45,889 bases of DNA from a virus (taxonomy: Duplodnaviria; Heunggongvirae; Uroviricota; Caudoviricetes): IMG/VR virus record IMGVR_UViG_2576861104_000010, one strand, 5' to 3'. The position numbers were made by a program, and so were the translations under genes. This document shows, piece by piece, positions 30,338 through 31,538 of the stretch (position 1 is its first letter; each line of letters opens with the position of its first letter). The notes beneath the pieces are model-generated. The model did no database searches and was not told where the DNA came from. It saw only the letters and a program-made list of their open reading frames with translations.

Positions 30338-30793
30338 TGGTTATCCCTCAATAAAAGTGACATATTTATTAGATTGCGGTGCCGGGTGCCTCCCGGTGTC
30401 CTTTGGCTGGTTATCCACCGTGGGCGGGGAAACAAGGAGAAATAATGGACAGATATAACCATTTCCCCGCATGCGCTTAGCCGCATTCACCGCAACGGAA
30501 AGAGCATTCTTGGTGGACCTGTAGATTGGGATATGACCCCGTTACGCCAGTGTTCTCAACGTTGTAGTGCCGGTTACGGTTCCGGCCAGGCCTCTTCCTC
30601 AACGGGGTGTTCTCCATACGGACTACCGTTTATTGGTCGTTCCTGCGGTTTATATTGTGAAGCCAGATGCTTATCTTCTGGTTGCTTCAAAGAGCTGCAC
30701 TTCATCACAACGGTAAGGGTACTTCGTAGGGATTCGAACCCTCTGCCAAGCACGGCGATCTCCGACGTCGCAAAATACCCTTACCTGTTGTGT

Positions 30794-30872
30794 TGGTGCC
30801 GGTTAACGGACTCGAACCGCTGACGACCCGTTGATTAACAGTCAACCGCTCTAACCGCTGAGCTACACCATC
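30794..30872 (-). tRNA. tRNA-like element with Asn (GUU) anticodon arm; weakened acceptor stem, possibly a pseudogene
   Basis: Canonical D arm (GCTC-AGCGGTTA-GAGC), anticodon arm (GTTGA-CTGTTAA-TCAAC), T arm (AGCGG-TTCGAGT-CCGTT) and 3' ACCA, but the acceptor strands GATGGTG/AACCGGC pair at only 5 of 7 positions and the variable loop is 8 nt. Confidence 0.35.
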
Positions 30873-31538
30873 ACTTGCCGGGTACGTCTCCGGCGAGGGC
30901 TTCCACCTCCGTATGCTTTTCGGCGCACCGTGCCCTGGCTGCAATTCGGTAACAGGGGATGCATAACCCTGGCTTCCAGCGTGATTAGCGCCTTCAGCAT
31001 GACGGGATATACCCGTAAATTTGTTGGACAGTACCAAAAGTGCTGTTAAGCACCGACTGTTACGCTGAAAATGACGTAACAGGTAAGGGCACTGACCAAC
31101 AGATGGCCCCTTCTCGTTCATCTGGTTAATCACACCAGCGCCCTTACCTGTTGTGCCTCCCCGTTCCCTAATACACAGACGGGGACACTCTGCGGTCGAT
31201 TTTTTGACGGGGGACGACTCATACCCCGTGGCGTCTGGCTTCTTAGGCCGCTACCATCATCAGATCATCGTTTGCATTTACTTTAATGGTCAGTTTATAA
31301 ACCGCCGCAAAGTCGCTAACCATGACGAAAACCCTGAAAAAACGCCCACCCGAAGATGGGCAAACTGGAAGCTCGTAACGCACTTCGGTGTTGCCACTTA
31401 GGCGTATGGTCAACCTGGCAACTCGGCGTCATGATGGGGAAGGAGTCACTACCCCGCCATACTTGCCGCCGCGCCTGTCGCGGCTAACAGCTAAATCGCT
31501 CTATAAATCACGATTCATTGAGGCGATATTACACTAAT

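Follow-up and report, generated by a model that had tools for sequence, protein, structure and literature searches.

The DNA considered here is a viral sequence of 45,889 nt (Caudoviricetes; IMG/VR record IMGVR_UViG_2576861104_000010), hereafter called the window, and the subject of this work is a stretch of it around positions 30706-31155 in which an initial annotation had placed a tRNA-like sequence and two similar long inverted repeats. Across positions 30400-31600 the window shares ~95% identity with phage P1. In the P1 annotation (locus L001), Pban/Op72, a dicF-like region, trnA (tRNA-Asn), trnT (tRNA-Thr), tciA, tciB, tciC, trnI and ban lie on a single strand, which corresponds to the minus strand of the window, and this one-strand order implies that the features of 30706-31155 belong to the upstream untranslated RNA of an early lytic operon. 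As judged from this homology, the stretch is the untranslated leader of a P1-type ban operon, read as a minus-strand transcript from a C1-repressed promoter at ~31560. Small stable-RNA units are strung together in this leader; in the window they come in the order DicF-like terminated RNA, hairpin E_d, tRNA, hairpin E_c, a broken hairpin and an STnc100/PasD-like RNA, followed by tciABC, trnI and ban. The only sizeable open reading frame (ORF) of the region, 30533-30823(+), is a truncated remnant of the P1 gene plp without any Pfam match, in keeping with the earlier statement that no convincing ORF is present, and the tRNA-like sequence and both inverted repeats were recovered at their reported positions with ARAGORN, Rfam and folding:

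30706..30792, minus strand: hairpin E_c (fold z-score -5.31; conserved in P1, L001 2086-2172, with 1 substitution)
30794..30872, minus strand: chimeric tRNA (ARAGORN tRNA-Asn(gtt); Rfam RF00005; three-way alignment with P1 trnA and trnT)
31075..31155, minus strand: hairpin E_d (fold z-score -5.38; P1 copy z-score -4.74)

On the minus strand, E_c folds at -39.7 kcal/mol (mean of shuffled sequences, -23.1) and E_d at -40.5 kcal/mol, and in neither case did any of 200 shuffles fold as well. The inverted repeat of E_c has 13-nt arms (30712-30724 and 30773-30785, 92% complementary), that of E_d 17-nt arms (31078-31094 and 31136-31152, 94% complementary). The basal stem of E_c, CACAAC-A-GGUAAGGGUAUUUUG / CGAAGUACCCUUACC-GUUGUG, contains a bulged A that is not present in E_d. 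The stem of the latter (AACAGGUAAGGGCGCUG / CAGUGCCCUUACCUGUU) is fully paired in the window, whereas its P1 copy has one G.U pair and the U.U mismatch typical of the family described below. The similarity of the two stems resides in a common 15-nt sequence, CCCTTACCTGTTGTG, in the right arms and a common 12-nt sequence, GGTAAGGG(T/C)ACT, in the left arms. At ≤1 mismatch the window contains the motif CYCTTWCCKGTT 7 times (1.06 expected), and the 3 exact occurrences of this motif are all located inside E_c or E_d. The apex of E_c includes a T-arm-like GGGUUCGAAUCCC, and the element encloses GGGTTCGAATCCC at 30729-30741(-), which is the T-arm-like sequence initially reported within the first element.

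By their arm sequences, E_c and E_d are members of a large family of hairpins with a constant stem and a variable tip. A search pattern was built from the common arms (5' arm AACAGGUAAG(A/G)G, 3' arm C(C/U)CUU(A/U)CC(U)GUU, apex of 36-80 nt, transcribed strand); both window elements fit it. This pattern was found in at least 120 viral contigs, most of them prophage-sized and not P1-like, and the matches listed comprise 98 distinct sequences of one architecture, with apices that fall, by their first 10 nt, into 58 mutually unrelated classes. The basal stem, 5'-CACAAC-A-GG-U-AAGAGCAUUG ... CAGUGCUCUU-U-CC-GUUGUG-3', is near-invariant; it comprises 18 bp, interrupted by one bulged A and one U.U mismatch, and closes a segment of 36-65 nt. 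Most of the hairpins are 70-89 nt long (family range 60-105 nt), and their apices fold into one hairpin in 35 cases, two in 21 and three in 2, most of them without a T-arm. Two further ideas were discarded: a full tRNA embedded between the arms (nothing exceeded 109 nt except a false pairing across the P1 leader), and a boxA-like UGCUCUUU in the 3' arm as a NusB/E site, which is missing from the P1 and window copies and buried in the stem.

Analysis of 61 distinct arm pairs revealed that 90.6% of the cells are paired, that the segments AAC-A-GG-U-AAG and CUU-U-CC-GUU show no variation in any of the 61, and that wherever only one side of the stem varies, a G.U pair results on the sense strand. 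Covariation is seen at the innermost conserved pairs (AU/GC/GU; GC/CG/UA/UG). Counted over a larger set of 92 distinct arm pairs, G.U pairs number 166 on the sense strand and 64 on the antisense strand, with mean fold energies of -26.5 and -21.4 kcal/mol, respectively. The hairpins are conserved structures on the transcribed strand of polycistronic leaders, where they are situated between units of stable RNA. No Rfam 15 family matches the copies scanned, i.e. those of the window and of 20 other loci.

The initial annotation had offered decayed or rearranged tRNA genes as one explanation of the inverted repeats, and intrinsic terminators or attenuators of the ban leader would be another. T-arm-like hairpins do occur in E_c and several other apices, a U-rich tract (GCGUUUUCUUUUC) does follow E_d in P1, and other tRNA-derived pieces lie in the surrounding leaders. 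However, E_c and E_d are both kept in P1 beside intact trnA and trnT, and are thus not decay products of those genes. The Rfam tRNA model, applied to 30300-31800, detects nothing but the fused tRNA at E≤10, and has no match at E≤1 on the hairpins of 20 loci. The likeness of E_c to real tRNAs is confined to the 16-nt T-arm, for which a specific tRNA donor was sought, with only generic 16-nt matches. A terminator scan reported sites only at 31343-31365(-) and 31002-31016(+), none at E_c or E_d. The downstream consensus of the family is GUGGUGAA instead of a U-tract, so the family hairpins are not terminators. Both forms of this explanation are therefore very unlikely, and the other suggestion made at the outset, structured RNAs of another kind, fits both repeats.

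Phage P1 itself contains four paralogous units of this family, whose minus-strand folds have z-scores of -4.7 to -7.3:

L001 1594-1667, minus strand: E_a, folds strongly
L001 1850-1949, minus strand: E_b, folds strongly
L001 2086-2172, minus strand: E_c, folds strongly
L001 2531-2612, minus strand: E_d, folds strongly

A T-arm-like hairpin is found in the loops of E_a, E_b and E_c. Orthologous or paralogous copies in other phages differ by compensating changes in the arms: the E_c apex, with arms GGGUA/UACCC in P1, has GAGCA/UGCUC in Enterobacter phage BUCT554, and E_b has GAACAC/GUGUUC in P1 and GACCAC/GUGGUC in the Klebsiella phage-plasmid pJN2-26. Compensatory changes are also present within the apex of E_d (P1 compared with locus L012). 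Of the P1 units, E_a and E_b are represented in the window by a single remnant:

30486..30576, minus strand: broken hybrid hairpin (5' arm of P1 E_b, 3' arm of P1 E_a; fold z-score +0.54, no better than shuffles)

Compared with P1 (L001 1594-1949), 279 bp have been lost here between the T-arm-like loops of E_a and E_b, which are 25 bp long (GTAGATTGGGATATGAMCCCGTTAC). This deletion removed upl and the start of plp and left a hybrid whose arms do not match.

The third feature, the tRNA-Asn-like sequence with a GUU anticodon, has intact D, anticodon and T arms and a poor acceptor stem, as had been described; it scores 46.6 bits with RF00005 (gathering score 29) and is called by the tRNA finder as well, with the non-standard acceptor pairs A2.G71 and G7.A66. 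By blastn and a three-way alignment with P1, this odd tRNA is a deletion fusion of the adjacent genes trnA and trnT. Its nucleotides 1-49 (5' strand of the acceptor, D arm, anticodon arm and start of the variable loop) are those of trnA, i.e. tRNA-Asn (GUU), and the part from TCAGCGG through CCA (T arm, 3' strand of the acceptor and discriminator A73) is that of trnT; the junction is a 78-bp deletion at a short GTC microhomology, and the variable loop exceeds that of each parent by 3 nt. The suspicion of a rearranged copy from a P1 trnA/trnT neighbourhood is thereby borne out. As a consequence of the deletion, the acceptor stem is composed of non-matching halves (A2.G71, U3.G70, G7.A66) and the trnA discriminator G73 is replaced by the trnT-derived A73, so that the seven-pair acceptor stem and the parental discriminator of a functional tRNA-Asn are lacking. 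The 46.6 bits of the fusion compare with 72.9-74.5 bits for a pair of intact neighbouring tRNAs in loci L031/L035. The only tRNA called among the three features is hence a non-canonical one, and it is probably poorly functional or dead. The same 78-bp deletion is present in plasmid CP057689.1 (a single ungapped match of 482 bp for a 481-nt query); the recurrence of the junction in an independent plasmid indicates that the fusion is not an assembly artefact. The pair of genes is not peculiar to P1: according to a paper on phage L, tRNA-Asn and tRNA-Thr genes open the late operon of Sf6.

Members of the hairpin family were found in P1, P7, Klebsiella phage-plasmids, a Uetakevirus and several Enterobacterales genomes. 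The genome scan covered one genome per species, and 35 hits among the 120 loci listed passed the stem-complementarity filter; with a pattern estimated to carry ~32 bits and 1.2e12 positions searched, hits outside the Enterobacterales are largely noise. The true genome matches among those listed are confined to this order (Serratia, Klebsiella, Kluyvera, Citrobacter, Pantoea, Rouxiella, Chimaeribacter and Superficieibacter). Contigs with a hairpin identical to that of phage lambda were also observed in assemblies of Pseudomonas, Psychrobacter, Algoriphagus, Oceanobacillus, Neobacillus and Segatella and in metagenome-assembled genomes (L137, L140, L152, L156, L158, L171, L173, L185, L187, L201, L204 and others); several are short or of low coverage, and these occurrences in unrelated assemblies are probably lambda DNA contamination.

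In lambda the member is at 44787-44862, under the hypothetical 'orf-64', and its start is 5 nt past the T-run of tR', the terminator at which the 6S RNA ends; it is the longest double-stranded RNA (dsRNA) element of the late leader between tR' and S. Lambdoid members in general are placed between the late terminator tR' and the lysis genes. Among 70 non-P1 loci, the nearest upstream gene on the same strand encodes the antiterminator Q in 32, and the nearest downstream genes belong to holin or lysozyme families in ~25 hits. In the 17 non-P1 loci that bear tRNA genes, all neighbouring tRNAs are co-oriented with the hairpin, which fills a slot of the tRNA array with the spacing usual for a tRNA:

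L013, L022, L055 and L073: hairpin, then tRNA (gap 0-1 nt)
L111: tRNA, then hairpin (gap 4 nt)
window: CCA end of the fused tRNA, then E_c (gap 1 nt)

Two observations on the neighbourhood may be added. In locus L082, an IsrJ RNA (28-104; RF01393, 60 bits), which appears to be a short terminator-ended RNA of a prophage late-type promoter, directly precedes a family hairpin (118-190), as the 6S RNA does in lambda. Genes of the N4 gp49 / Sf6 gp66 family (PF13876) recur near hairpins in BUCT554, the Klebsiella phage pJN2-26 and several prophages, and account for 5 of the 70 downstream neighbours (e.g. L002 1549-2147 and L003 1-343).

Annotated coding sequences overlap family members in P1 (plp, upl), lambda (orf-64) and BUCT554 (hypothetical proteins), which raises the question of whether the region is simply protein-coding. 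In a formal sense only, the description of the stretch as non-coding is challenged by P1, where plp runs antisense over the first element. The hypothetical coding sequences of lambda and BUCT554 differ in position and strand relative to the hairpin, and none of these ORFs has a Pfam family: the reading frame is antisense to the hairpin in P1 and BUCT554, but sense in lambda, where it covers the 5' arm only. The window, moreover, has lost upl and the plp start through the 279-bp deletion, and both arms are equally conserved, with wobble and compensatory variation that is not a codon pattern. A coding function of these segments can hardly be credited.

Around the hairpins and the tRNA, the leader contains the following features:

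31526..31557, no strand assigned: C1-controlled operator and promoter of the ban operon, the Op72 / Pban palindrome (P1 protein_bind and promoter features, L001 2979-3024; palindrome scan)
31337..31444, minus strand: DicF-like region (P1 misc_feature 'dicF-like region', L001 2783-2884; alignment to P1)
31158..31188, minus strand: small hairpin CCCCGUC...GGAACGGGG (-18.1 kcal/mol; z-score -1.74, weak)
30375..30494, minus strand: STnc100/PasD-like RNA (RF02076, 35.8 bits, E 8.9e-6, below the gathering score of 47)

Op72/Pban is the transcription start region for all leader units, reading leftwards. The DicF-like region is closed by a terminator-like hairpin with a T-run at 31343-31362(-), and the Rfam DicF model has no match in the window at E≤10; this unit is a short terminated RNA upstream of E_d that parallels the 6S RNA and tR' of lambda. 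The small hairpin lies directly upstream of E_d in the RNA sense, and many family members are preceded by analogous hairpins with a 5-bp stem and a 7-nt loop (recurrent GCUCCACGAAACGGAGC and CCUCGGAAGAGACGAGG). The STnc100/PasD-like RNA starts 3 nt past the E_a-type 3' arm, just upstream of tciA (TerB family), and a like arrangement is seen in locus L038. The consensus of RF02076 looks tRNA-like by eye: it is closed by a stem of 7 bp, its first hairpin resembles a D arm, and its 3' end reads ...GGCACCA.

A preprint from the Storz laboratory (bioRxiv 10.64898/2026.05.13.724894) places PasD/STnc100, TerB (the tciA family), Q and holin genes in a common lambdoid neighbourhood, and the family hairpins are not described there. 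The Pas small RNAs were considered as the same thing as the hairpins and rejected, being Hfq-type small RNAs with terminators (bioRxiv 10.64898/2026.05.13.724894). Elsewhere in this part of the window, tciA (29903-30337(-)) is a diverged allele, blastn (word size 16) aligning its flanks to P1 but not 29873-30367; the ARAGORN tRNA-Met(CAT) at 29553-29628(-) corresponds to the P1 gene trnI, annotated there as tRNA-Ile2 (CAT), intact and scoring 66.2 bits; and the P1 homology ends at 31696, with an IS91-family region from 31697 that has truncated the methyltransferase gene dmt, of which only the last ~69 codons are left (31546-31755(-)).

Comparison of related loci revealed pronounced local mosaicism. 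Loci L013 and L073 have near-identical flanks, with few substitutions, and different apices, and the boundaries of the difference lie inside the stem. When 341 nt of lambda were used as a query, Klebsiella, Shigella and Salmonella phages matched only the 82-nt hairpin (94-97.5% identity), and the next two ~80-nt blocks of the lambda leader matched other, different sets of phages, including rV5-like phages and P7. As the blocks match different phages, the leaders are mosaics of tRNA-sized modules. The ~85-nt block after the lambda hairpin (lambda 44866-44952, L125 1067-1153) shows 83% identity to a tRNA-array spacer unit of rV5-like virulent phages (L250 587-683) and 98.5% identity to P7 72368-72432; it is bounded by GUUGUGCUG...CAGCACAAC. 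It is plausible that the conserved arms act as short recombination homologies, through which apices would be swapped and deletions generated, and the two deletions of the window, one between paralogous hairpin units and one between trnA and trnT, fit the picture of module mosaics.

Such exchange is what might be expected of an element acting at the DNA level, for instance a relative of miniature inverted-repeat transposable elements (MITEs), an attC-like folded single-strand recombination site, or a linker homology for the exchange of phage modules. Integron attC sites are imperfect hairpins, 57-141 nt long, in which the outer AAC/GTT are invariant, some bases are extrahelical and the terminal structure varies. 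The family hairpins share these traits, with AAC...GTT as their invariant outer triplets; they form a discrete 82-bp module in otherwise unrelated flanks and have evidently recombined with one another, while the neighbouring ~80-bp blocks of the lambda leader are independently mosaic. However, they contain a single bulged A instead of the 5-6-nt unpaired central spacer of attC, the boundaries of the apex swaps lie inside the stem and not at the AAC/GTT triplets, and among the Pfam families of the neighbouring genes there is no integrase family and no integrase or transposase that is consistently adjacent. Unlike in MITEs, the flanks are inverted (CAC...GTG) and not direct, with no target-site duplications, and the interiors are unrelated. 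The hairpins share the orientation of transcription, of the ban operon in P1 and, across the non-P1 loci that were examined, of all adjacent tRNAs, which is expected of an RNA and not of a DNA site. A role as a DNA element therefore seems improbable.

At the RNA level, the position of the hairpins after a leaky terminator and before a tRNA or tRNA-like unit means that an endonucleolytic cut there would free the short upstream RNA and leave a short leader for RNase P. The stems amount to 18-21 bp or more of dsRNA, their 18 conserved pairs being extended to 19-21 bp or more in lambda, P1 and the window; they contain an internal mismatch and are not followed by a U-tract. Sites for ribonuclease III (RNase III) lie within transcripts and typically span some two turns of a dsRNA helix, often interrupted by a mismatch; the stems agree with this form, and the window elements lie on the sense strand of the ban operon. 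We propose that the hairpins are double-strand-specific processing sites of the RNase III type, at which read-through leader transcripts would be cut between stable RNAs. Such a cut would release the short RNA or tRNA that lies upstream, and RNase P would then remove the short leader left on the downstream tRNA or tRNA-like unit; the apex would be irrelevant to the enzyme and hence largely free to vary. To the explanation as a whole, i.e. a ban leader composed of an array of RNA units, with a trnA-trnT fusion and with family hairpins as processing sites, we assign a probability of roughly 0.55.

Known phage systems offer partial parallels. By the title of a 1988 study by Daniels and colleagues, RNase III processing sites were reportedly identified in lambda late transcripts in vivo, and the family hairpin may be one of them. 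The window hairpins have the stem sequence of the lambda member and its placement downstream of a short terminated RNA; lambda, however, carries one copy in a Q-antiterminated late operon, and P1 four to five copies in an early, C1-controlled one. The RNase III sites of phage T7 (R0.3, R0.5, R1.1 and others) are paralogous hairpins in polycistronic mRNAs. Like the family hairpins, they separate transcript units and have an internal mismatch or loop in a stem of ~20 bp, but they lie between protein genes and not between tRNAs and small RNAs, and they are not known to resemble the family hairpins in sequence; it is the latter that combine an invariant lower stem with a hypervariable, exchangeable apex.

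Several points weigh against the processing reading. That the lambda sites of 1988 coincide with the family hairpin is inferred from a title, as it stands in the reference list of another article (PMC7547250, ref. 49: Daniels, Subbarao, Blattner and Lozeron 1988, Virology 167:568), and another hairpin, of 13 bp, located shortly before S in lambda (45116-45167), offers an alternative RNase III site. No family member is present in the late leader of phi80, and none was found in DLP12 and Qin, the two K-12 cryptic prophages examined, so the hairpin is dispensable for lambdoid late expression and must be regarded as accessory. (The M3 RNA of phi80, reportedly an RNase P substrate, had been considered as the same element and was rejected for this reason.) For recognition by RNase III the geometry of a helix matters more than its sequence, so that it is not obvious why the stem should be invariant across several host genera. 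RNase III alone fails to account for the conserved bulge and mismatch, or for the discreteness and exchange of the apices. The preference for G.T wobbles would also be expected of a folded single-stranded DNA site. Finally, given unrelated, discrete apex classes and a tRNA-like size (mostly 70-89 nt), the excised hairpin could itself be a functional small RNA.

This last reading, in which a phage or host protein would use the constant stem as a handle, while diversifying selection would act on the hypervariable apex as a specificity domain, is possible, if clearly less probable than processing. Such RNAs, released from the tRNA arrays by tRNA-processing enzymes in the manner of the non-tRNA stable RNAs of phage T4, might act as decoys, regulators, anti-defence or exclusion RNAs. 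It would account for the invariance of the stem at the nucleotide level, bulged A and U.U mismatch included, for the 58 mutually unlike apex classes among the matches listed, for apex swaps within near-identical flanks, for the tRNA-like unit size and array spacing, for the maintenance of hairpin and apex as a discrete 82-nt module across differing flanks, and for the compensatory changes in the E_d apex between P1 and L012. On the other hand, there is no fold common to the apices, which form one, two or three hairpins; the best antisense match of the lambda apex within lambda, 12 nt, is at chance level, being equalled by 22 of 200 shuffles; and one member is destroyed in a natural plasmid, as the broken hybrid of the window. 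The more specific idea of a new class of phage small RNAs, with a protein-bound invariant stem, an exchangeable apex that sets specificity and a role in phage-host or phage-phage conflict (e.g. as decoys for tRNA-targeting defences or as exclusion determinants), is somewhat more doubtful still.

Stable RNAs other than tRNAs are known from phage tRNA clusters. That of phage T4 holds species 1 and 2 (rnaC/rnaD), which resemble the family hairpins in being co-transcribed, tRNA-sized structured RNAs in slots of a phage tRNA array; they differ in being single conserved genes and not a family with swappable apices, and no homology is expected. The tRNA-like small RNAs YrlA (bacterial Y RNA-like, RF02553), STnc100/PasD and the C4 antisense RNA of P1 resemble E_c, which has a canonical T-loop hairpin within a long closing stem; most family members, however, have no T-loop. 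The Rfam models of YrlA, C4 and STnc100 do not match the hairpins scanned, and weak matches of YrlA (25.6 bits, against 69) span real tRNA pairs only.

Taken together, the tRNA of the window is explained and ordinary, the hairpin family is widespread and uncatalogued, and its role is most likely one of a known kind, in RNA processing. What appeared to be an idiosyncrasy of P1 is a general feature of temperate phages of enterobacteria: upstream of ban in P1, and upstream of the lysis and Shiga-toxin genes of lambdoid phages, the untranslated leader consists of tRNA-sized RNA modules punctuated by one conserved hairpin, which is missing from Rfam 15 and mis-annotated as hypothetical proteins (plp in P1, orf-64 in lambda). 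The hairpin marks a hot-spot of moron insertion downstream of Q, and its short homologies would account for the local mosaicism and for deletions of the kind that gave the tRNA fusion. It is also a testable candidate for the RNase III sites of lambda late RNA. If the small-RNA reading were true, lambda's own copy would have been overlooked for decades, and if the invariant stem has a dedicated partner, the family would represent a new class of phage RNA in the best-studied phage.

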